A model generated the notes under the pieces. It was given only the letters and a program-made list of their open reading frames with translations, did not search any database and had not been told where the DNA came from. A stretch of DNA of 64,000 nucleotides from Dictyostelium discoideum (taxonomy: Eukaryota). This document shows, one piece after another, positions 1,016-58,845 of this stretch (position 1 is its first letter; each line of letters opens with the position of its first letter). Both the position numbers and the translations under genes were made by a program. The stretch is taken from positions 6,464,001 to 6,528,000 of the forward strand of contig CM000151.3 of assembly GCA_000004695.1 (NCBI GenBank), read 5' to 3'.

Positions 1016-1630
1016 CTATTGTGTTACAACACTATCAGCTCCAGTATTTTCAAATTCTTCATTTGGATTATTTGTTTTTATTTTAGGATTGTTTACCCTA
1101 TTTTTCTTTTTTATTCTTTTACATTTTATTATTATAAATATTACAATTTTAAATATTACATTGTAATTGGATTTGGATAAGGTTTGAGTTGTGGGTGGTT
1201 GATCAGTATGTGATTTAATTTTTGAATTTCCAGGTTTTTCATCATCATCAGAAGTTTTGTTTTTTATTATATAATTCATCATTCCAACTAAATTAAAATA
1301 TTTATCTTCACATAACATTGATGGGTTAACTAATTTTTCATAGGAATATTCTGTACCAATAACTGGGTATCCAAAATAATGATCTATATAATCGAATGGA
1401 TCTGATAATTCTACTGCTGAATCCATTAAGTTAAGTCCTTTTATTTCACCATCAATACTACTGACCCATCTTTAATAGTTTGGTCCAATTGTAAATATTT
1501 TTAAAATTTTTTTGGTTTCATATTGAATTTTATTAAATAATACCAAACGATTACCAATTATTCCTTCTTCACAATTAACAATTGTAAATTCAATAGTTAA
1601 AAATAAAAAAATAATTAAAAAAATTTTCAT
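1016..1630 (-). CDS. secreted hypothetical protein with an N-terminal signal peptide (MKIFLIIFLFLTIEFTIVNC...). The reading frame is continuous over 615 nt except for one in-frame TAA at 1472-1474
   Basis: ATG at 1630 and ATG at 1426 are in the same frame, 204 nt apart. The frame reads ...KIFTIGPNY*RWVSSIDGEIKGLNLMDSAVELSDPF... so the upstream signal-peptide segment joins the listed 136-aa ORF through a single stop codon. Confidence 0.35.
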
Positions 1631-1989: not shown

Positions 1990-4173
1990 ATTTATAACAA
2001 AACATGTATTTTTAAATTTAATATTTACTAAAAAAAAAAAAAAAAAACCAAGTCAAATATCTTCAAATCTCCTAAGTACTCAATCGATTAAATTAAAAAG
2101 TTGATGATATTTGGCTTGGTTGTTTTTTTTTTTTTTTTCATTTTTTTTTTTTTATTTTGTCAAAAATAATAATTAAAACAATAACAACATTAATCGTTGT
2201 AGTATTAATAGTCACAATGAAAACGATACTACAGAGATGTTTTGAATAAAATTTGTTTTGTATATAACACCACATTTGAAAATTGAAAATTGAAATAGTA
2301 GTAATGGGTAATTCAAATAGTCACTATATAAAAGAAGATGAGGGATGAAAGTTTGGACAAATAATCAGATGAAGAAGATAAAGGGTCATGATGAAAGGAT
2401 CGATTTGATGATTAGAAGGATGATAAATATGTTAATTCAAGATTTAAAAAAACAAATTAAACAAGTTGAAACTAAAGTTTATGTAATTAGTTTCAGGGAT
2501 ATCCAAATTTTCCATAACACTTACATACCTTATGTGGTTGCGCTTATGATCGGGTTAAACTTAACAATCACTTCAATAAATCAACCATTCAATTTAACAA
2601 TATTATTCACCATCTTACATCTTTATCATTATGTATTATGTATATTTATTATTTGTTTCACTGTTCCATCACTTGAGGTAAGTTATAAAATCATACAAAC
2701 ACAAATATTTCCCTACAAAGATAATTTGGGATCTTTGATATTAATTTTTTTAATTTAATTTTTTTTATTAATTTATTTATACCATCATTTAGTCAACCTC
2801 AACAACCTAAACAACAACAACAACAACAATAACAATTACTAAAAGTAGATTTTTATGTGGTCCAACTAAACCTGCTCTCACAAACAATTGGTAATTTATT
2901 AAGTACAATTACAACCTCTAGAAATGGTTTATTGTATTGTTCCCAACAAACTATTTGCTAATATAAGTACTGTTTTATTTAGTTTAATAACATCAGCTAT
3001 TCCTATTAATATTATTATTTTATTATGATTTTTATTATGATTTTATTATGATTTTGATAATTCTGAAGTACTTTTCACTTAATATTGAAAGTTTTCTCTT
3101 TTCATCTTTTCTATAACGTTCAGCCAAGAGTGCAGTTTTTTATAGGATAATTCTTGAGTTTCTGTAGTATTAGTAGTAGTTGTATTTTTATATATTAAAT
3201 ACACAGTAGTAGATTCAACATTGATATAAATGAAAAAGCAAGGCATCCATTGGTTAGATAAGCATTCACTGATTTCGAAATTAATAAAAAAAAAAGATAA
3301 ATTTTAGCAAATAATTTTTTATTATAAGGGAGGTCACATTTTCAAAAAATGACAGGAGCCTATGACCCTGTGCGCACTGAAGAAGAGGAAGAAAGTTTAT
3401 AAAAAAAAATTAATTTTTATCACTTAAAAATAATAAAAAATAAAAAGTTTCAACTCAACCCAAACCCACAAACTTTAATGATCAAAATTAAAACCCAATC
3501 ACCATTTGCTACTGTAATGAAAACAATACAAACAATACCCCAAAATATTATACTAAATATACTATCCTTACAAATTAAATGAATTATAAAAAAAAAATAA
3601 AAAAATTTGCAATGGTATAAAAAAAAAAAAAAATAATAAGAAAAAAAATAAAAGATCTATAAATAATGATCAAATTTGTTGGAGTTAATTCCAATTCACT
3701 CATATACATTATTTTATTTTTAATTGGTTAAATTTAGTAACTCGCATGTGCTGGTTTTCTTTTTATTTATTTTTTATTTATTTATTTTTTATTTTTTTTT
3801 CATAAATAATTAAAAAAATTAAAAAATAAATTATTTAAAATTTTATTCATAAATAATTAAATTATCCAATGAAAAACAAATACCAAACCACAGTAATAAT
3901 ATTAATAAAAATTTAAATCTTAAAAGACTCTATTAGTTTTACTTTTTGACCAACCCCTAAATTTTTTTTTTTTTTTTTTTTTTTTTATATTATTTATTTT
4001 TCAATGGAAAATTAAATTCCTTATGTAATAAAATTTGTTGTTGTTGTGGTAAAGTTTGAAATAACAACAACTGACTCTTAATAAAAACAAAAAATAAAAA
4101 TAAGTTGCTTAATTGTTATTATTATTATTTTTAGTTTTATTTAATTTTTTTTTTTTATTATTATTATTATTTT

Positions 4174-4554: not shown

Positions 4555-5229
4555 ATGGATAATAATAATAATAATAATAATCCAAATAATAATAATCCAA
4601 ACAATAATCCAAATAATAATAATGAAATAGTTTTAGATATTAATAATGAAAATAAATATATTTTTGGTTTAAAATTTAATTATCCAAAAAAAGAAAATAA
4701 TGTTATTGTAAAAAGAAAAAGTGATAATAAAGATAAATTTATATGGATATTTTCAAATGAATACCCAATTAATTTAAGAGATTATATTTCAAAAGAAGAT
4801 TTTAAAAATGATATTAAAATAGTAAATGGATTAAATGGCTATTTTATATTTATAATTGGTTTATATTCATTTTGGGTGCTATTTTTTTCAGTTATGTTTA
4901 TGATTGGATTCATTCCAAAAATAAGTCCAGTTCTTTTGGGTTTATTTGGTCCATTTTTATTTTTCTCAATTTTAAGTTTAATTTATCAATTAAAGTTTAA
5001 AAGACATAAAACATTTTTAAATTATTTAGAAGGAAGAATTCGTCATTTAAATCATAAATATAGAGATATTCAAATAGTTTGGAAATTAGAAAAAAAGATT
5101 TTTATAAATTTTCATAGAGAAAAGAAATTAAAAGTTTGGATTGAAATTCAACTTCCAAATTATCCAATAAAGATTGTTCAATCTTGTCCACAATTTTCAA
5201 ATATTCAAATTTCAATACCAAATAATTGA
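4555..5229 (+). CDS. hypothetical membrane protein: Asn-rich N-terminus followed by two or three hydrophobic helices
   Basis: 224-aa ORF with a hydrophobic core (FIFIIGLYSFWVLFFSVMFMIGF, LLGLFGPFLFFSILSLIY) and AT-rich flanks typical of Dictyostelium promoters and terminators. Confidence 0.4.
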   Translation: MDNNNNNNNPNNNNPNNNPNNNNEIVLDINNENKYIFGLKFNYPKKENNVIVKRKSDNKDKFIWIFSNEYPINLRDYISKEDFKNDIKIVNGLNGYFIFIIGLYSFWVLFFSVMFMIGFIPKISPVLLGLFGPFLFFSILSLIYQLKFKRHKTFLNYLEGRIRHLNHKYRDIQIVWKLEKKIFINFHREKKLKVWIEIQLPNYPIKIVQSCPQFSNIQISIPNN

Positions 5230-11939: not shown

Positions 11940-12781
11940 TTTTTTTTTTTTTTTTTTTTTTAATATTGGATTAACAAGATTGATATATGTCCATCTGTGT
12001 TAATACGAGTTTTATTTAATATTTATTTATAGGCTTATCATTTAAGCTGAAGGGTTATTTTAATCATATGAATTGATCAAAAGATATAATATTTGGGAGA
12101 GATGATTCTGGAATACAATAGTAATTAGCTGTTGTTTTTCTTAGCTTGATCGTTGAGGTGAGAAGGATCTTAGGATCTTTGAAATTATTATGGTCTTTTG
12201 CTGATAAGTTTTTCAGATCTTTTGCTTTTTTGATGTATTCTAGAGTGGCCAATTTGTGCCATTTCTTTAGAAGGGAGCTGTATGATAGTGATTCATTTGT
12301 TAAAGGATCTTCACTGTATATTTGATTGCAAATCCAAATCCAAATGTTGTGGAGGATAAGGGCCATTAGGTTTCTATATGCGTATGATCTGGATAGATCA
12401 TAGTCTATTGCTTTATAGTTCCATTCAAAGTATTCTTTGTGGAATCTGTGGTTGGCGTAATCTGCATTCACTTCTTGATCTTTTTTTTGCTGTCGGTGAT
12501 AATTTTGGAGTTATTCTATTAATGAAATTGTTATTTTGCCTAATTCTTGTATGGTGCCAGTTTTTACCTTTGCCTGTGGTAATATAGATGAAATTTTTGA
12601 GTTTATTTATTTTTATGAATTGTTTTGTTTTCTTGCATGAGAAGAACAGGTGACCGTATGGGTCTTTGCTCATATCTTCTTTGCAGAGTGGGCATTGTTT
12701 GTTGTGAAGGTAGTTTATTGGAAGGCATCTGGCATGGAATCTAAACATTGTGTCTCTTGTTTTAGGGTCTTTTATCTTCAG
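11940..12781 (-). mobile_element. 5'-truncated copy of the same TRE3-like non-LTR retrotransposon: its 3'-terminal ~820 bp plus a poly(A) tail
   Basis: 11962-12781 is about 98% identical to 12806-13625. The poly-T run at 11941-11961 is a poly(A) tail on the minus strand. The copy directly abuts the poly(A) of the full-length copy. The ORF fragments at 12064-12471 and 12425-12748 are frame-shifted pieces of the ORF2 C-terminus. Confidence 0.8.
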
Positions 12782-12906
12782 TATTTTTTTTTTTTTTTTT
12801 TTTAATATTGGATTAACAAGATTGATATATGTCCATCTGTGTTAATACGAGTTTTTATTTAATATTTATTTATAGGCTTATCATTTAAGCTGAAGGGTTA
12901 TTTTAA

Positions 12907-15900
12907 TCATATGAATTGATCAAAAGATATAATATTTGGGAGAGATGATTCTGGAATACAATAGTAATTAGCTGTTGTTTTTCTTAGCTTGATCGTTGAG
13001 GTGAGAAGGATCTTAGGATCTTTGAAGTTATTATGGTCTTTTGCTGATAAGTTTTTCAGATCTTTTGCTTTTTTGATGTATTCTAGAGTGGCCAATTTGT
13101 GCCATTTCTTTAGAAGGGAGCTGTATGATAGTGATTCATTTGTTAAAGGATCTTCGCTGTATATTTGATTGCAAATCCAAATCCAAATGTTGTGGAGGAT
13201 AAGGGCCATTAGGTTTCTATATGCGAATGATCTGGTTAGATCATAGTCTATTGCTTTATAGTTCCATTCAAAGTATTCTTTGTGGAATCTGTGGTTGGCG
13301 TAATCTGCATTCACTTCTTGATCTTTTTTGGCTGTCGGTGATAATTTTGGAGTTATTCTATTAATGAAATTGTTATTTTGCCTAATTCTTGTATGGTGCC
13401 AGTTTTTACCTTTGCCTGTGGTAATATAGATGAAATTTTTGAGTTTATTTATTTTTATGAATTGTTTTGTTTTCTTGCATGAGAAGAACAGGTGACCGTA
13501 TGGGTCTTTGCTCATATCTTCTTTGCAGAGTGGGCATTGTTTGTTGTGAAGGTAGTTTATTGGAAGGCATCTGGCATGGAATCTAAACATTGTGTCTCTT
13601 GTTTTAGGGTCTTTTATCTTCAGTATGTTGTTGAAGAGTTGATTATAGCTGTAGCCTCTTAAGTTTAGAGATGATTGGAATTCCGTTTTAGGGATGGTTG
13701 GATTTTGGTCTTGAATTGTGGTATACCATTCTGCCAGTGAAAGTGGTTGTCCATTTTCGTTTTTTATGGATGTGAGATTATTGTTGAAGATTGCTTTTTT
13801 TATTCTTATTTTGTTCCATTCGTCTAAGTTTTCTTTTAGGTATCTGGATGTGAATTTGTTTTTTTGGATCTGATATTCCCAGCTTTTGTGATGAGATGAG
13901 TTTGTTTGTTTGGTTTCTAGTGCTAGGATGAACTGGTTTATGATCCAAAGTTTCTGCGCCAGTTGTCTCAATTCTATATTCCAAATGTTCCAGCCCCCTA
14001 CTTTTAGTGGGTATCTTGCTCTTTTGGTTCTCATTAAATTAATAACTTGAAATCCACTAGCATTTTTGTTGTTTGGTGCCGATAAAAACCATTCGACTAA
14101 TTTATTGATTTGGTTTAATTCCTCTTCCTTAAAGTTCTCTACATATGAATAGTAGGTTAATTTAGAGAGTGCGAATGCTTTGAGGATGTTGGTTTTGGTT
14201 TTGATTGTTGAGTCAGTGGTTTTCCATAGTACTAAGGATGATCTTATTGTGTTTAATATTTCTGGCATTTTTCTTGTTATCCCTTTGCCTGTGAAGAAGT
14301 ATCCCAAGTATCTTTCTGGATTTGTAGATATTGGAATTCTTTGGTTGGTATTGTCTGGGTTGCCTATAAGAATTGATGAAGATTTGTCGATGTTTAGTTT
14401 TGAGGAAGTGGCTTTGCAAAATGAATTGAAGTGTTGTAGTACTAATTCAAGTTGTTGAGAGTCTGGGACCATTGAAGCCGAGTCGTCTGCAAAGCTTTGG
14501 AATTTCTCTCTGTGGTTGCTGTTGTTTAGAGGAAGGCCAGTAATTCGGTCATCTTGTAAAATTTTTCTAGCTAAAGCCTCTATTACAAGGACGAACAGGG
14601 TGGGTGATAGTGGATCTCCTTGTTTAACTCCTCTTTTGATCTCAAAGGGTATAGTAGTTCTACCATTAATTTCAATTCTTGCTTCAGATTTGGTGAGTAG
14701 ATTCATTATCAGGTTGATTATATTGGTTGGAATGTTGATGTGTTGTAGTGATCTGAGTATTGAACCGTGTGAGATCGAGTCAAAAGCTTTTTCGAAATCA
14801 TATAGTGTAATTATTCCGTTAATTCTTTTATCATTACAATAGTTGATTAATTCGTTCATTGATATGATATTATCTATAATGAATCTGCCTGGTACGAAAC
14901 CTTTTTGATTGTGGTTGATCACTTTCGTTAGTATTGGGATTATTCTATTGTTTATTAGTTTTGAGTGGATTTTATATATACAGTTAGCCAGTGTAATTGG
15001 TCTTCTGTTTTTGATTAGTTCGGGGTCTCCCTTTTTAGGTATCGTGATAATGAGGCCTTCTTTGTAATTTTTGCTAATTAGATGAGGATTTCTTAGAGTG
15101 TCGTTGAATGCTGAGGCCAGTATTGGAGCTAGTTTTTCTTTGTGTGTTATGTAGAATAAGTTTGGAATTCCATCTGGGCCTGGAGATTTGTGTGGGTTCA
15201 ATTGTTTTATTACTTCTAGGATCTCTTGTGATGTGAATTCATTTTCAAGGTTGTCCCATGTTGAGTCCCTGGTCACTGTCCAATTTTCCAACATTTCATA
15301 ATGAGATGGTGGGTCATCTTCTTTGTAGTCATAAAGATTTGAGTAATATTTTACGTATTCTTCTTCGATCAATTCCTGTTTGTTGATTGTTCTACCTTGT
15401 GCATCTTTTACTGCGTTGATGGTGAAATCATTGTGTCTTTTCTTGATTCTCGCGGAGATGTACTTGAGTGAGGTTTCTTCGCAATAGTTGTTCAATTCTT
15501 GTTTAAGTTGTTCTTCTCTTTTTTTAGATTCATTTATTGCTGAAAGGGTTGCGAAGGCTTGGTCTTTAAATTCTGTCTCTAGTAGGGAGATTAGATTTTT
15601 GATGTTTGCCTTATTGTTGTAGTCATTTTGTTTTTGAAATTCTGTGTATAGTTGTTTTATTTTGTTTAGTAAGCTGTTGAGTTGAGAGAAGGAAATAGAG
15701 TTATGGTTGGATGACAGCTCCCTTGAATAATCGTTAAGTAGGAAGTCTATTTTCTTAAGCATTATGCTTGAGAGGATTGAGGATTTTTTTAATCTCCATC
15801 TGCGCTTGTTCATCTGTATGTTGGGTAGAGTGAAGGTGGTTGATAGGAAGTTGTGATCTGATAGAGGTATGTCATTAATTTTTGGGGGGATTAGGTTCCT

Positions 15901-16611
15901 TAAGTATAATTGGCTGTAGTTGATTATGCTATTGTTAAGGTATATTCTGTCTAGTCTCCTTTCCAAGATTCTTGTGAGGTTATTGTTTGTGTTGTGTATC
16001 GTTCTTGAGAAGGTGGGTCTTTTATTTAGTTGGTCCATATCCATTAGGTTATTTGAAATTCTGATGGCTTCGATTACTGTGGCCATCTCATCTGGGGATT
16101 GTGTTGTCAAGTTGCCTTGGTCATCATTTGATGTGTGATTGTCATTGAAGTCTAAACAATTGAAGTCGCCTGCTATGATGTCGATGTTTTTTTTAGGGTT
16201 AGACGTTAGGTTGTGGTATTGGTTGTTGAAGTGTTTGTTTAGTGTTGAAGCTAGTGTTTTTCTTTTATCAGGTTGGGCCGGGGCGTATATGGCCAAGATT
16301 CTCGTTGTGGTATCTTTTATTAGAATGTCTGATATTATTAGTCTACCTTCTATTATGAATATTGGTGAGAGTTTTATGTTTTGGTTGTTGTGGTTTAGTA
16401 TTCCTATTCCGTTGCCTCTGTTGGTTGCGCTAATGATGGAGCCAGGAAATAGCTGGTGTGCTTGTGTTGCGTCGGCGTTGAGTTCATTGACTATGGTTAG
16501 TGCCAATGAGTTTGGGGGGGATTGGGATTTGATAAAGTCTGTTTTGTTTTTGAAGGAGGTGTCAGTGCCCCAACCTCTGACATTCCATTGGTTGATTTTG
16601 ATTACTACCAT
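12907..16611 (-). CDS. retrotransposon ORF2: apurinic-type endonuclease, reverse transcriptase and C-terminal Cys-rich (CCHC-like) domain
   Basis: 1234 aa. APE motifs: QWNVRGW, IIAGDFN, RLDRIY, LSDHNF. RT motifs: PITLANCIYKI, QKGFVPGRF, ITLYDFEKAFDSISH, GVKQGDPLSPTLF, SFADDSA (a YxDD variant). C-terminal zinc-knuckle-like segment: CPLCKEDMSKDPYGHLFFSC. Confidence 0.9.
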   Translation of the reverse strand: MVVIKINQWNVRGWGTDTSFKNKTDFIKSQSPPNSLALTIVNELNADATQAHQLFPGSIISATNRGNGIGILNHNNQNIKLSPIFIIEGRLIISDILIKDTTTRILAIYAPAQPDKRKTLASTLNKHFNNQYHNLTSNPKKNIDIIAGDFNCLDFNDNHTSNDDQGNLTTQSPDEMATVIEAIRISNNLMDMDQLNKRPTFSRTIHNTNNNLTRILERRLDRIYLNNSIINYSQLYLRNLIPPKINDIPLSDHNFLSTTFTLPNIQMNKRRWRLKKSSILSSIMLKKIDFLLNDYSRELSSNHNSISFSQLNSLLNKIKQLYTEFQKQNDYNNKANIKNLISLLETEFKDQAFATLSAINESKKREEQLKQELNNYCEETSLKYISARIKKRHNDFTINAVKDAQGRTINKQELIEEEYVKYYSNLYDYKEDDPPSHYEMLENWTVTRDSTWDNLENEFTSQEILEVIKQLNPHKSPGPDGIPNLFYITHKEKLAPILASAFNDTLRNPHLISKNYKEGLIITIPKKGDPELIKNRRPITLANCIYKIHSKLINNRIIPILTKVINHNQKGFVPGRFIIDNIISMNELINYCNDKRINGIITLYDFEKAFDSISHGSILRSLQHINIPTNIINLIMNLLTKSEARIEINGRTTIPFEIKRGVKQGDPLSPTLFVLVIEALARKILQDDRITGLPLNNSNHREKFQSFADDSASMVPDSQQLELVLQHFNSFCKATSSKLNIDKSSSILIGNPDNTNQRIPISTNPERYLGYFFTGKGITRKMPEILNTIRSSLVLWKTTDSTIKTKTNILKAFALSKLTYYSYVENFKEEELNQINKLVEWFLSAPNNKNASGFQVINLMRTKRARYPLKVGGWNIWNIELRQLAQKLWIINQFILALETKQTNSSHHKSWEYQIQKNKFTSRYLKENLDEWNKIRIKKAIFNNNLTSIKNENGQPLSLAEWYTTIQDQNPTIPKTEFQSSLNLRGYSYNQLFNNILKIKDPKTRDTMFRFHARCLPINYLHNKQCPLCKEDMSKDPYGHLFFSCKKTKQFIKINKLKNFIYITTGKGKNWHHTRIRQNNNFINRITPKLSPTAKKDQEVNADYANHRFHKEYFEWNYKAIDYDLTRSFAYRNLMALILHNIWIWICNQIYSEDPLTNESLSYSSLLKKWHKLATLEYIKKAKDLKNLSAKDHNNFKDPKILLTSTIKLRKTTANYYCIPESSLPNIISFDQFI

Positions 16612-17864
16612 TATGAGATGATATCGATCTCCTCTTGGGAGTCGTATAGCTGCGGTTTGGATGGTGAAGGGTAGATACTCTCTATGAAGCTCTCAATGAT
16701 TCCTTTCCTTTCTTTTTTGACAGGTGTCTTAGGGGTGGATGGGATGTAAGGGTTGCTTCTGTTTATTGTTGGTGAGAGTTGGGTGACCTCGTTGTTTGAG
16801 TGGATTTCCTCGTTCTTGCGTTTATGTGATGGAGGGATGTTTGGTGTCTTCTCTCTGTTTTCCGAGGATGAATGGATGTTAGTGCTCGTTTTGTTGGCAT
16901 TGTCTTTTTGGATGGCGTTGGATGTTGTGGTAGTGGTTGTGGTGGGTTTGACAGATTGAGATTCTGCTTGGTTTTTGGGGGGAAGAGGTTGAGAGGACTT
17001 TTTTGATTGGGCTTTTTTCTCTTGGGTTGATTGTTTATCAGACTGATTGTTTGCTGGGTCATTTGTTTGTTGTTGTGGTTTTGGTTGAGAGGATTTGATT
17101 GCTATCCTGTTTTGGGTGTTGGGAGGATCATCTGTCATCTCATCTTCTAATGGTTCTTCCGTGTTGTTTAACTCTACTTTCTTATTTTTCTTTTGTGAGG
17201 AGTAGGTTTTGGTGGCCGTTCTGATGGTAAAGTTGGCGATTTCTGTATTGTGTTGGCCAGATTTCATTTGATCGCCTATTTTGCATTCTATTAGACCGAA
17301 TACTAGGAGGTGGTCGGTGGAGTATATAGTATGGTATATTGCATAGGGTATTTCTTCTGCAAAGGCAGTTTTGATGAGGGCGTCCACTATTCCTGCCTTT
17401 TCTCTTGGAATTCTTACTCTTCCTGTGAGGACGTGGTAGTCTCTACTGGAGGTGATGAAGGTTCCCAATTTGCTTCTATCTCTAATGATATTTAGGAGAG
17501 ATTGTTCGTTTTTAATCATCAGGTGTATCATTTTTCTAGTTCCTTTGCCTATGTATATCTTGTCGATTGGGATATCGTAGTTTGAGAGTGTTTTTCTCAT
17601 TTCTTCTAACCCCATGAGATCCATTTTGGGGAATTCGAGTGTAATTGGGTAGAATCCGTTGTTTTTCTCGTAGGTTGAGAGCGCAGTCATGTTCAATATG
17701 GTCTCGCAGTATTTGGAGATGTCTTTGAGGCCTATTGATAATTTGGGATAGGTCTCCTTTATCTCTGCTGTTTTTGTGGAGAATTCCTTAATGAAGTTCT
17801 CTGATGCCTCGTCCATATGGGTGGAGGGGTTGGCCATTTTAGCCGCGTCTGCGTAGGAATTCAT
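16611..17864 (-). CDS. retrotransposon ORF1: 417 aa with a Pro/Gln/Thr-rich basic C-terminus, typical of a nucleic-acid-binding ORF1 protein
   Basis: The ORF lies directly upstream of ORF2, with its stop overlapping the ORF2 start at 16611. It has no cellular homolog features. It is preceded by a ~215-nt 5' UTR. Confidence 0.75.
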   Translation of the reverse strand: MNSYADAAKMANPSTHMDEASENFIKEFSTKTAEIKETYPKLSIGLKDISKYCETILNMTALSTYEKNNGFYPITLEFPKMDLMGLEEMRKTLSNYDIPIDKIYIGKGTRKMIHLMIKNEQSLLNIIRDRSKLGTFITSSRDYHVLTGRVRIPREKAGIVDALIKTAFAEEIPYAIYHTIYSTDHLLVFGLIECKIGDQMKSGQHNTEIANFTIRTATKTYSSQKKNKKVELNNTEEPLEDEMTDDPPNTQNRIAIKSSQPKPQQQTNDPANNQSDKQSTQEKKAQSKKSSQPLPPKNQAESQSVKPTTTTTTTSNAIQKDNANKTSTNIHSSSENREKTPNIPPSHKRKNEEIHSNNEVTQLSPTINRSNPYIPSTPKTPVKKERKGIIESFIESIYPSPSKPQLYDSQEEIDIIS

Positions 17865-18158: not shown

Positions 18159-18239
18159 TGATAAAGGCGAGATTCGAACTCGCGAAGCCGAAGCATAAGA
18201 ACTTGAGTCTTACCCATTTGACCACTCTGGTACTTTACC
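18159..18239 (-). tRNA. tRNA-Leu(CAA), type II, 81 nt, no intron
   Basis: Minus-strand read: GGTAAAG-TA-CCA-GAGTGGTCAAA-TGG-G-TAAGA-CTCAAGT-TCTTA-TGCTTCGGCTTC-GCGAG-TTCGAAT-CTCGC-CTTTATC-A. Acceptor stem is 7 bp with one G.U pair, D-stem is 3 bp, anticodon stem is a perfect 5 bp, the loop has U33 and G37 flanking anticodon CAA, the variable arm is 12 nt, and T-stem and loop are canonical. Confidence 0.85.
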
Positions 18240-18684: not shown

Positions 18685-18725
<41 letters not shown>

Positions 18726-20403: not shown

Positions 20404-20868
20404 ATGTCAAACTTTCAAAATCAAGAAATTAATATTGGTTCGGTTGTACTTGGTGATAGATCATTAAGTAATGGTCAATATGGTGATAAAAAGAGTATTC
20501 GTCATGTTGATTTTGATGTACCATTTTCAGGTATTCCAAAAGTTTCTTTAGGAATTAATTTCTTGGATGCATCATCTTCAGAACAAATTCGTATTCGTTG
20601 TATTGCTCAAAATATAACATCAAAAGGTATGGACATTTCATTCACAACATGGAATGATAATACTGTCTATGATGTAGCAGTTGATTATGTTGCTATTTAT
20701 AATCCAAAATTTGGAAATTCAAATAATAAAAATAATAATGATAATAATATTAGTAATACAAATACAAACCAACAAAGAAATCAATATAATGATAATGAAA
20801 ATAATAATTATCAACAACAAAGCCAACAAAGTTATTATGAAAATACAAATAATAATAACAATAATAAA

Positions 20869-20926
<58 letters not shown>

Positions 20927-21465
20927 GTGAAGATAAACAACAACAACATCAACAACAAGGAAGATATCAAGAAAATAACAATTATAATAGAAATGATAAT
21001 GATAATGATTATCAATCTCAATCTCAATCTCAATCTCAATCTCAATCTCAATCTCAATCTCAATCACAATTACAATCAAATAATTTTAATGGTAAAAATG
21101 TAAATATTAGATCAAATAAATTTAATAATTATATTAGAGATAATAATGGTAAAGGTGATATGTCACAAACTGCAAGAAATAATGAAACATGGATAATAAC
21201 ATCTGCCAATAATAATGGAGATTTATTTTTTATTCATAATAGATATAATCATTATCTTTCAAGTAATGGTGATAGAGTATTGGTTGGTGAAAAGAATGAT
21301 TCTTCAATTTGGAAGATTTCACAACGTAGACAAGGTGTTTACTCAATTCAAAACTATAAAAATTCAAATTATCTAAGTTCAACTGATAGAAATGAATTAA
21401 AAACAAATGTTAAAGTTGTAAATTCTTGGGAAGAATTTAATTTTAATTTTGTTCAAGATTCTTGA
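20404..21465 (+). CDS. H-type lectin domain protein: N-terminal H-lectin domain, N/Q-rich linker with (SQ)n, C-terminal fascin-like beta-trefoil-type domain
   Basis: 353-aa single-exon ORF. The N-terminus (VDFDVPFSGIPKVSLGINFLDASSSEQIRIRCIAQNITSKGMDISFTTWNDNTVYDVAVDYVAI) matches the Helix pomatia agglutinin and discoidin H-type lectin pattern (..LD.....R......NIT..GF......TW....VY....W.AI). The C-terminus (WIITSANNNGDLFFIHNRYNHYLSSNGDRVLVGEKNDSSIWKI...YSIQNYKNSNYLS...VVNSWEEFNF) is trefoil-like. Confidence 0.8.
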
Positions 21466-21525: not shown

Positions 21526-21824
21526 CATTCAATATTAAAATATCAACAATAACAACAACACATCCATTCATTTTCAACAATTAAAGTATCTCTTTTGTTT
21601 TAAAAAATAAATAAATAAATAAATAAAAAAAATCTAAAAAAGTTGGTTTATTATTTCTTTTCTGTTGAATTTTCTGATTTATATTTTAAGAATTTTTTTT
21701 TTTTTTTTTTGGACTTTCCAAAATATTTTAAAAAAAATTAAATATTTAAATTCCAAAATTAAATCATAAATGATTTTATTATTAAGGTTAATTTAAATAG
21801 AGTTTAAAACTTTTTTTTCAAACC

Positions 21825-21985
21825 ATACTTACCTGTCATTATCAATATGTGATCATAAAGGAATATTTGATTTCAAACATTTCAGACCATTGCACTTTTA
21901 GGTTTGTTTTTTTTATGATCTTCCAAAAATAGGATACAAGTGACAATTTATGATAGTCGTGGATGTTGCGCTTGCGCACTCCCAC
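21825..21985 (+). ncRNA. U1 spliceosomal snRNA gene, about 161 nt
   Basis: It starts ATACTTACCTG, the 5' splice-site pairing sequence. Stem-loop I has loop GATCATAAAGG (compare the U1-70K site GAUCACGAAGG). Stem-loop II has loop CCATTGCACT (U1A site AUUGCAC). An Sm-like site CAATTTATGATAG is followed by a GC-rich terminal hairpin GTGGATGTTGCGCTTGCGCACTCCCAC. A TATA-like TTTAAATAG lies at about -30. Confidence 0.8.
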
Positions 21986-22482
21986 AACACACCCTATTTA
22001 ATTTTAAAGAAAAATAATAATAATAATAATAATAATAATAATTATAATTATATCACTAATAATTAAAATAATAATAATTTTAGAATCAAGTAATGAGACT
22101 AGTTAAAACCAATACTATAGTATATATATCATAATGGTAATGGATATTGGCACCCAGGTTTACTAAAATTAGAACCAGGTGGCTTTGTATTGAATGGAAA
22201 TATTTCAAATATTAAACATTTATCATTAGAACAAATTTATAGGTTCATTTCAAACTAAATAAATTAAAATTAAAAATTTTTTTGTTAACTTTTTGTTTTA
22301 TTATTTTGATATATTGAAAATTTGTTAATCATTTTGTATTATTTTTATTTTCAAATAATTAATAAAATTTGAGAAATTATTATATTATGATAATATTGAA
22401 GATGAAAAAACAATTCCCAAATATTTATACGGTGGAATAAATTTAAAAATTAGATTATAAATAATAAATATTTATTATTTGA

Positions 22483-22513
<31 letters not shown>

Positions 22514-58277: not shown

Positions 58278-58845
58278 TTTTTTTTTTTTTGTTTTTTTTT
58301 GATTTCACCCACAACGACTTTGTGTTGGTTTTTGAAATGAAAAAAAAGATAAACAATCAAAAAAAAAAAAAAATAAAAAATAAAAAATAAAAAAAAAAAA
58401 AATAAAAAAAAAGGTGAAAATAAATTTTCGAAAAAAAAAAAAAAATAAAAAAAAAAAACTAAACTATAAAAATTTTCGTTTTTTTTGATCAATTTTTTAT
58501 ATTTTTTTTTTTATTTTTATTTTTTTATTTTTATTTTTATATTAACTAAAAAATAGATTTAATTTACATTTTATTTTTGGTTTTTTTTTTTTTTATTTCC
58601 AAAAATGAATTTTTTTTTTTTTTTTCTTTTAGTTTTAAATAAAATCTATGGACTCTAGATATTTATTTTACAAAAATTCCTGATATTATAAACCTTCAAG
58701 TTACTAATGTGTCAGTGTCAGGGTCAGTTCAATTTTTTTTTTTAAACAAATCTTTTTTTTTTTATAATAGTCAATAAAAATGGTACTTTTTTGTTGGCTA
58801 TTTATTAAAAAATAATAAATTTAAATAACAAACGATAAGATTAAT

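Follow-up and report, generated by a model that had tools for sequence, protein, structure and literature searches.

Does the forward strand at 21825-21987 of the window (the whole 64-kb stretch of Dictyostelium discoideum AX4 chromosome 2 DNA analysed here) carry a genuine U1 spliceosomal RNA gene, and if it does, from what promoter could that gene be transcribed? The first part of the question can be answered with near certainty: this is a U1 gene. For the second, a U1 gene that lacks a canonical DUSE is probably the best overall explanation, and a degenerate upstream site is a tentative candidate for its promoter. The identification is carried by the E-value of a covariance-model match together with the motifs; thermodynamics alone is insufficient to identify the gene. 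A U1 gene has already been described for D. discoideum (published in 2006, according to citations in PMC3188802 and PMC11193728), and the find is in that respect ordinary and no discovery. What is unusual is limited to two points, namely the missing standard promoter motif and the absence of the DNA at this position in close relatives.

The Rfam covariance model for U1 (RF00003) matches 21825-21986 (+) over its full length (model positions 1-166 of 166) with 60.1 bits, which corresponds to E = 1.8e-14 on 601 nt and E = 1.9e-12 for the whole 64-kb window. This is the Infernal search that the earlier note had proposed, and it bears out the call. The parts of the gene are as follows.

21825..21987 (+): U1 snRNA coding region, ~163 nt; the 3′ end is uncertain by a few nt
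21825..21835 (+): 5′ splice-site pairing sequence AUACUUACCUG, an exact match to the model consensus
21827-21834 (+): ACUUACCU, complementary to 5′ splice sites, within AUACUUACCUG
21835..21840 (+): helix H 5′ strand GUCAUU, paired with 21939-21944 in the minimum free energy (MFE) and canonical structures
21841..21871 (+): stem-loop 1 (SL1), 9 bp with one bulged U; -1.4 kcal/mol
21851-21862 (+): SL1 loop GAUCAUAAAGGA, the predicted U1-70K site; aligns to model GAUCAaGAAG
21851-21861 (+): U1-70K loop motif GAUCAUAAAGG, located exactly
21872..21915 (+): stem-loop 2 (SL2), apical 6-bp stem 21883-21888 / 21901-21906; -5.0 kcal/mol
21889-21895 (+): AUUGCAC, the predicted U1A site in the SL2 loop, located exactly
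21888-21896 (+): CAUUGCACU around the U1A loop, identical to the model
21916..21938 (+): stem-loop 3 (SL3), 3 bp only, 21922-21924 / 21932-21934; -1.5 kcal/mol
21939..21944 (+): helix H 3′ strand AGUGAC, in the MFE and canonical structures
21945..21953 (+): Sm site AAUUUAUGA, between helix H and SL4; aligns to model AAUUUgUGg
21959..21985 (+): stem-loop 4 (SL4), the terminal G+C-rich hairpin, 9 bp with a CUUG tetraloop; -10.6 kcal/mol

From 21825 to 21987 (+) the sequence reads AUACUUACCUG UCAUU AUCAAUAUGUGAUCAUAAAGGAAUAUUUGAU ... CCAUUGCACUU ... ACAAUUUAUGAUAG UCGUGGAUGUUGCGCUUGCGCACUCCCACAA. All five elements that had earlier been thought recognisable (the 5′ splice-site sequence, the U1-70K loop, the U1A loop, the Sm site and the terminal hairpin) were located exactly and have an exact or near-exact sequence, and both membership of the U1 family, by sequence and structure, and the presence of every binding motif are direct observations. 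The AUAAAGG of the SL1 loop also occurs in U1 genes that score 139-150 bits. The gene forms a G+C island: its own G+C content is 33%, that of the 500 bp to each side of it 16%. Counts of GTAAGT were considered as support for splice-site pairing and set aside as uninformative (14 in the window, 38.6 in shuffles).

Run with default settings on the 64-kb window, Rfam lists two tRNAs and nothing else; U1 is missing from it because 60.1 bits lies below the gathering score of RF00003 (69.5 bits), which is a curation threshold and not a biological feature. In the RF00003 alignment the mismatch marks sit in the stems and the single-stranded motifs are exact, with SL3 as the weakest stretch, and the score falls short of 69.5 bits because the stems are weak and A-U-rich. 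The earlier note had held that an Rfam score below threshold would speak against the call; formally the score is below it, but at E = 1.9e-12 this does not amount to a refutation.

At the 3′ end of the RNA, an exact DUSE-type octamer, TCCCACAA, occupies 21980-21987 (+), where it makes up the 3′ arm of SL4 plus two nucleotides and pairs with GUGG at 21959-21962. Its presence inside the RNA had been seen before, with coordinates (21979-21986) that have to be moved one base to the right, and given this position the RNA probably ends near 21987 rather than 21985. On the modelled hairpin, we read the octamer as a structural element and not as part of a promoter. It was also considered as the promoter of a downstream RNA and rejected in that role, as 22044-22262 folds with z = +0.11 and yields no structured RNA. 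Separately, ACAACACATCC (21555-21565, in the 3′ flank of the neighbouring lectin gene) and ACAACACACCC (21984-21994, across the U1 3′ end) agree in 10 of 11 nucleotides and run on into A/T-rich sequence that is loosely alike, a resemblance that is probably due to chance.

Secondary structure was evaluated by folding the U1 domains one by one, helix H not being folded separately. The domain energies total -18.5 kcal/mol, compared with -11.5 ± 3.5 kcal/mol for within-domain shuffles, 13 of 500 of which were as good. In the four-way junction, the MFE and the canonical structure each give helix H 6-7 bp, and the 3 bp of SL3 were equalled by 83 of 500 shuffles. The z-score of the whole-RNA fold is -1.6. 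The canonical structure (-24.0 kcal/mol) is 8.6 kcal/mol worse than the unconstrained MFE (-32.6 kcal/mol), because nt 27-39 of the RNA can pair with nt 83-95; in the MFE these two stretches, GAUCAUAAAGGAA (21851-21863) and UUUUUUUUAUGAUC (21907-21919), form 13 bp that bury the U1-70K loop. This predicted pairing may be a second conformation of the protein-free RNA, or A/U-richness may have produced it artificially. From an alignment of the AX4 U1 and six independent U1 genes of metagenome origin, RNAalifold gave four stems, and the SL4 pairs were kept; when aligned to animal U1s by sequence alone, AX4 retains only 20 of the 44 consensus pairs. As modelled, a four-stem U1 fold is possible with the motifs correctly placed: helix H, SL1, SL2, SL3 and SL4 can all be drawn. 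The full-model match, the tiny E-value, the complete set of splice-site and protein-binding motifs and this architecture together uphold the U1 call.

The locus belongs to D. discoideum AX4, with an open reading frame (ORF) at 4555-5226 that is identical to XP_643330.1 (DDB_G0276059). The U1 gene lies 360 bp downstream of an H-type lectin gene (20404-21465; PF09458), and the next gene past it, on the minus strand, is ~520 bp away. Elsewhere in the window, a non-LTR retrotransposon with two long ORFs, one of which matches RVT_1 (E = 1e-33), occupies 12907-17864 (-), ~300 bp from the 3′ side of tRNA-Leu(CAA) at 18159-18239 (-); the element is also present in the second D. discoideum assembly used here (locus L029), and we take the arrangement to be that expected of Dictyostelium tRNA-targeted retroelements (TRE type). 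Off-diagonal hits in a megablast comparison with L029 further show, at 11942-13626, two tandem copies, 99.2% identical, of a ~842-bp unit at the 3′ end of this retroelement.

Using the H-lectin protein, we retrieved the syntenic locus from six assemblies (L030, L001, L028, L002, L003 and L004). A second D. discoideum (L030, GCA_054883475) is 99.66% identical to AX4 over 11 kb and 100% identical over U1 ± 300 bp. In L001 and L028, both labelled D. discoideum, the flanks are only 87-91% identical to AX4, and ~315 bp with a small ORF take the place of AX4 21743-22506. In L002 (D. cf. discoideum), 129 bp stand in place of AX4 21642-22460, and in L003 (D. dimigraforme) and L004 (D. citrinum) synteny ends right after the lectin gene. 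Neither U1 nor even its 5′ 11-mer is present in the diverged loci L001, L002, L003, L004 and L028, and the compared assemblies show three different states at this one intergenic spot. Blastn against L001, L002 and L028, three diverged relatives in which unrelated sequence stands in its place, delimits the lineage-specific DNA.

21759..22506 (no strand assigned): segment specific to D. discoideum sensu stricto, ~750 bp

In addition to U1 and the 66 bp before it, the segment includes an (AAT)n tract and an open frame of 45 codons; in L030 it is 100% identical. Its only other matches are to (AAT)n tracts, and searches for target-site duplications or repeats at its edges returned only A/T low complexity. 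The 45-codon frame (22121-22258, +; YIYHNGNGYWHPGLLKLEPGGFVLNGNISNIKHLSLEQIYRFISN*) directly follows a 'tatag' that resembles a 3′ splice site, and could be a gene fragment or a chance occurrence; searches of the protein collection and of Pfam brought no homologue or match, and it was dropped as a clue to a donor locus. The small ORF that stands at the U1 position in relatives (L001:5330-5680, called as 116 aa; ~5330-5620 in L028) has no Pfam hit on record. A DUSE octamer, ACCCACAA, also occurs there in L001 and was dismissed as a coincidence, lying within the codons ATG ATC ACC CAC AAA. By sequence comparison, the pattern of U1 absence may reflect either a gain at this position in the AX4 lineage or losses in the others, and the non-synteny fits the known fast turnover of small ncRNA gene positions.

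The left edge of the segment was placed by an alignment anchored on a 22-mer shared between AX4 and L001/L028. The flanks align base for base as far as ...AAATTCCAAAAT in AX4 and ...GAGAATCCAAAAC in L001/L028, and then diverge at once. It follows that an upstream octamer, TTCCAAAA, in its copy proximal to the gene, is part of the shared flank and that D. discoideum-specific DNA starts 66 nt before +1. Such a junction could stem from the insertion, as DNA, of a U1 unit that lost its own DUSE at the breakpoint or had it fused there, for which a CCAAAA/CCCAYAA microhomology is conceivable as pure inference. It could also mark an ancient U1 position, at which relatives no longer have the gene but still keep its degenerate upstream element.

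We therefore turn to the upstream region itself, where the following sites come into consideration.

21751..21758 (+): TTCCAAAA, the best DUSE-like site, at -74..-67; 4.8 of 17.1 bits, 66 nt to +1
21716..21723 (+): a second TTCCAAAA, at -109..-102, arising from a 7-nt AX4-specific indel (CTTTCCA)
21792..21799 (+): TTTAAATA, a TATA-like candidate at -33..-26, not discriminating in DNA of 16% G+C

The published DUSE motif found by MEME is WCCCATAA (width 8, 113 sites; Kjellin et al. 2021, PMC7919456 supplement). Sites listed for D. discoideum in that supplement include TCCCACAA (22 cases), TCCCATAA (8 cases) and ACCCATAA, as well as the single cases TCCCAAAA, ACCCAAAA, TCCCATAT and TACCACAT, and the classifier described there accepts 56-64 nt from the motif end to the start, or a TGTG box. 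Upstream of U1 in the 64-kb window, neither WCCCAYAA nor WCCCAHAA occurs at promoter distance: the window holds 4 and 13 copies of them, respectively, none between 18729 and 21979 on either strand, and the nearest upstream WCCCAHAA is at 3464 on the same strand (18 kb away) or at 18721 on either strand. The 4 copies of WCCCAYAA are fewer than the 10.2 seen in shuffles. No TGTG box (AAATGTG) was found upstream of U1. The observation that the 100 bp before 21825 contain no obvious DUSE is thus confirmed for the canonical motif, though the weak TTCCAAAA exists there. Exact DUSE-type octamers ACCCACAA occur elsewhere in the window at 1189-1196 (-), 3464-3471 (+) and 58307-58314 (+); these three were tried as a calibration and abandoned, with no recognisable ncRNA within ~200 nt downstream by eye or by Rfam.

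We scored degenerate sites, which the earlier note had suggested looking for, with a weight matrix derived from the DUSE sites published for D. discoideum, on which the consensus reaches 17.1 bits and TCCCAAAA 12.2 bits. The top match within 300 nt upstream of U1 is the TTCCAAAA at -74..-67, whose distance of 66 nt from the start is 2 nt beyond the published 56-64. Its 4.8 bits are reached by 0.21% of window positions; at that rate, chance alone would bring such a match to within a few nt of the proper distance a few times in a hundred. TTCCAAAA is not among the 113 published DUSE sites, and T at position 2 practically never occurs in these. TCCAAAA is also found at the same flank position in relatives that lack U1.

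Given these data, we favour a U1 gene without a canonical DUSE, and this copy is likely to be expressed and functional. That its promoter consists of the degenerate TTCCAAAA (-74..-67) and the A/T-rich TATA-like stretch (-33..-26) is a tentative proposal; since TTCCAAAA lies exactly at the junction, the promoter may be a by-product of the gene's arrival or survival at this place. From established U1 biology, RNA polymerase II would make a ~163-nt transcript starting at A21825, which would be capped and then trimmed behind stem-loop 4. An Sm ring would be loaded on AAUUUAUGA, U1-70K would bind the SL1 loop and U1A the AUUGCAC loop, and the 5′ ACUUACCU would pair with GUAAGU-type 5′ splice sites and so start spliceosome assembly. 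A more far-reaching version, in which D. discoideum depends wholly or mainly on this U1 gene, transcribed without a canonical DUSE and using a TCCAAAA from a recent-relocation junction (formed there or inherited), appears to us rather doubtful. If it were true, the DUSE would not be obligatory for Pol II snRNA expression in Dictyostelium, and an essential snRNA gene would have moved to another chromosomal site within the D. discoideum species complex.

The alternative that survives best is that this copy is a silent or weak duplicate and that the cell's U1 comes from another gene or genes with a canonical DUSE ~60 nt upstream; we consider this unlikely. The copy would then be recent and made at the DNA level, with an undamaged but poorly transcribed sequence, its left breakpoint, 66 nt before +1, having removed the promoter element. 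The absence of a canonical DUSE upstream is in favour of this alternative, as is the fact that AX4-specific sequence begins just where a DUSE would lie. The literature, as far as the cited texts go, points the same way: no expression is reported for class I RNA genes whose DUSE is missing or misplaced (PMC7919456), every snRNA gene of D. purpureum is described as having a DUSE (Sucgang et al. 2011, PMC3188802), and 18 rnu genes are given for dictyBase (PMC3188802 supplement) against 17 in experimental papers (PMC11193728). Nevertheless, the 64-kb window and ~75 kb of related loci yielded no second U1-like sequence, and all functional motifs are intact, although a young duplicate would look alike. 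The abstract of the 2006 study reportedly states that a putative promoter precedes all 17 expressed snRNA genes; if so, its authors either accepted the degenerate U1 site or had an expressed U1 that lies elsewhere.

It is far less probable that the gene is a retro-copy, made from a polyadenylated U1 transcript by the reverse transcriptase of a non-LTR retrotransposon and hence promoterless. A reverse-transcriptase ORF (RVT_1, E = 1e-33) does lie 4 kb away, an A-rich (AAT)n tract begins 20 nt past the U1 3′ end, and the title of a 2006 paper by Hinas, as cited in PMC3188802, reportedly speaks of polyadenylated snRNAs in Dictyostelium. However, this origin does not fit the extent of the segment, in which lineage-specific DNA starts 66 nt upstream of +1 instead of at +1 and runs ~520 bp past U1; nor does it fit the lack of target-site duplications at the segment edges, or a tail that is not made of A alone and has CACACCCTATTTAATTTT (~20 nt) between it and the RNA end. 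That the stretch is a chance resemblance or a decayed relic is scarcely credible: the sub-threshold 60.1 bits and the weak thermodynamics (z = -1.6, with SL1 and SL3 no better than shuffles) speak for it, but E = 1.9e-12 across the full model length effectively refutes it, and the 5′ end matches at 11 of 11 positions, CAUUGCACU at 9 of 9, with the Sm site and the SL4 core (UGCG-tetraloop-CGCA) correct in order and spacing.

The find carries little biological weight: D. discoideum U1 has been in print since 2006, and the species has a curated reference genome. Recent Dictyostelium genome papers describe annotating snRNAs with Infernal and Rfam (PMC11193728; bioRxiv 10.64898/2026.03.01.708701), and since this U1 falls 9 bits under the cut-off, U1 may be under-called in A/T-rich amoebozoan genomes unless thresholds are relaxed. 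If this copy is the expressed U1, it would offer a natural test case for the need of a DUSE in Pol II snRNA transcription.

Compared with animal-type U1 genes (L006:3589-3752 and L021:3996-4158), the D. discoideum gene has a common order of elements from the 5′ AUACUUACCUG to the SL4 tetraloop, a GAUCAnnAAG-type SL1 loop, an AUUGCAC SL2 loop and a similar length of ~163 nt. It differs in its weak and A-U-rich stems, the 3-bp SL3, the Sm site AAUUUAUGA, a score of 60 bits where the animal genes reach 139-150 bits, and an MFE that prefers the alternative pairing. A scan of metagenomes with ATACTTACCTG..GATCATAAAG returned 23 loci, which were animal-type U1 genes (in tRNA, 5S or histone clusters) or chance coding matches; no dictyostelid U1 was among these 23, and a scan of prokaryote genomes for host contamination gave 0 hits. 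Spurious ORFs inside U1 were also looked up as a way to other contigs and proved not to be on record. Three contigs of 4-10 kb (L011, L018 and L019) carry dense clusters of animal-type U1, U2, U5, 5S rRNA, tRNA and the histone 3′ stem-loop, and L017:329-363 (-) holds a short U1-like sequence with a 5′ end, a U1A loop and an Sm-like site that stays under the gathering score.

Among the genes of its own genus, this U1 resembles the snRNA genes of D. discoideum and D. purpureum, as these are described in PMC3188802, in that its promoter is expected ~60 nt before +1, and the class I RNA genes, as described in PMC7919456, in being a small ncRNA gene of the same genome that is rarely syntenic between species. 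Unlike snRNA genes with a DUSE, it has no upstream [AT]CCCA[CT]AA or [AT]CCCA[AT]AA and only TTCCAAAA, at 66-nt spacing. Class I genes have TCCCACAA, TCCCATAA or ACCCATAA at 56-64 nt from their start or from a TGTG box, whereas both the DUSE and the TGTG box are missing upstream of this U1.

Pol II snRNA promoters of plants consist of a USE and a TATA box, and those of animals of a PSE and a DSE. An analogy of the upstream region described here with the USE and PSE would be functional only, and we claim no similarity of sequence; within that limit the systems are likely to be analogous: the start of an RNA that is capped but not polyadenylated would be fixed by an element at around -55 to -70, with or without a TATA-like stretch near -30.
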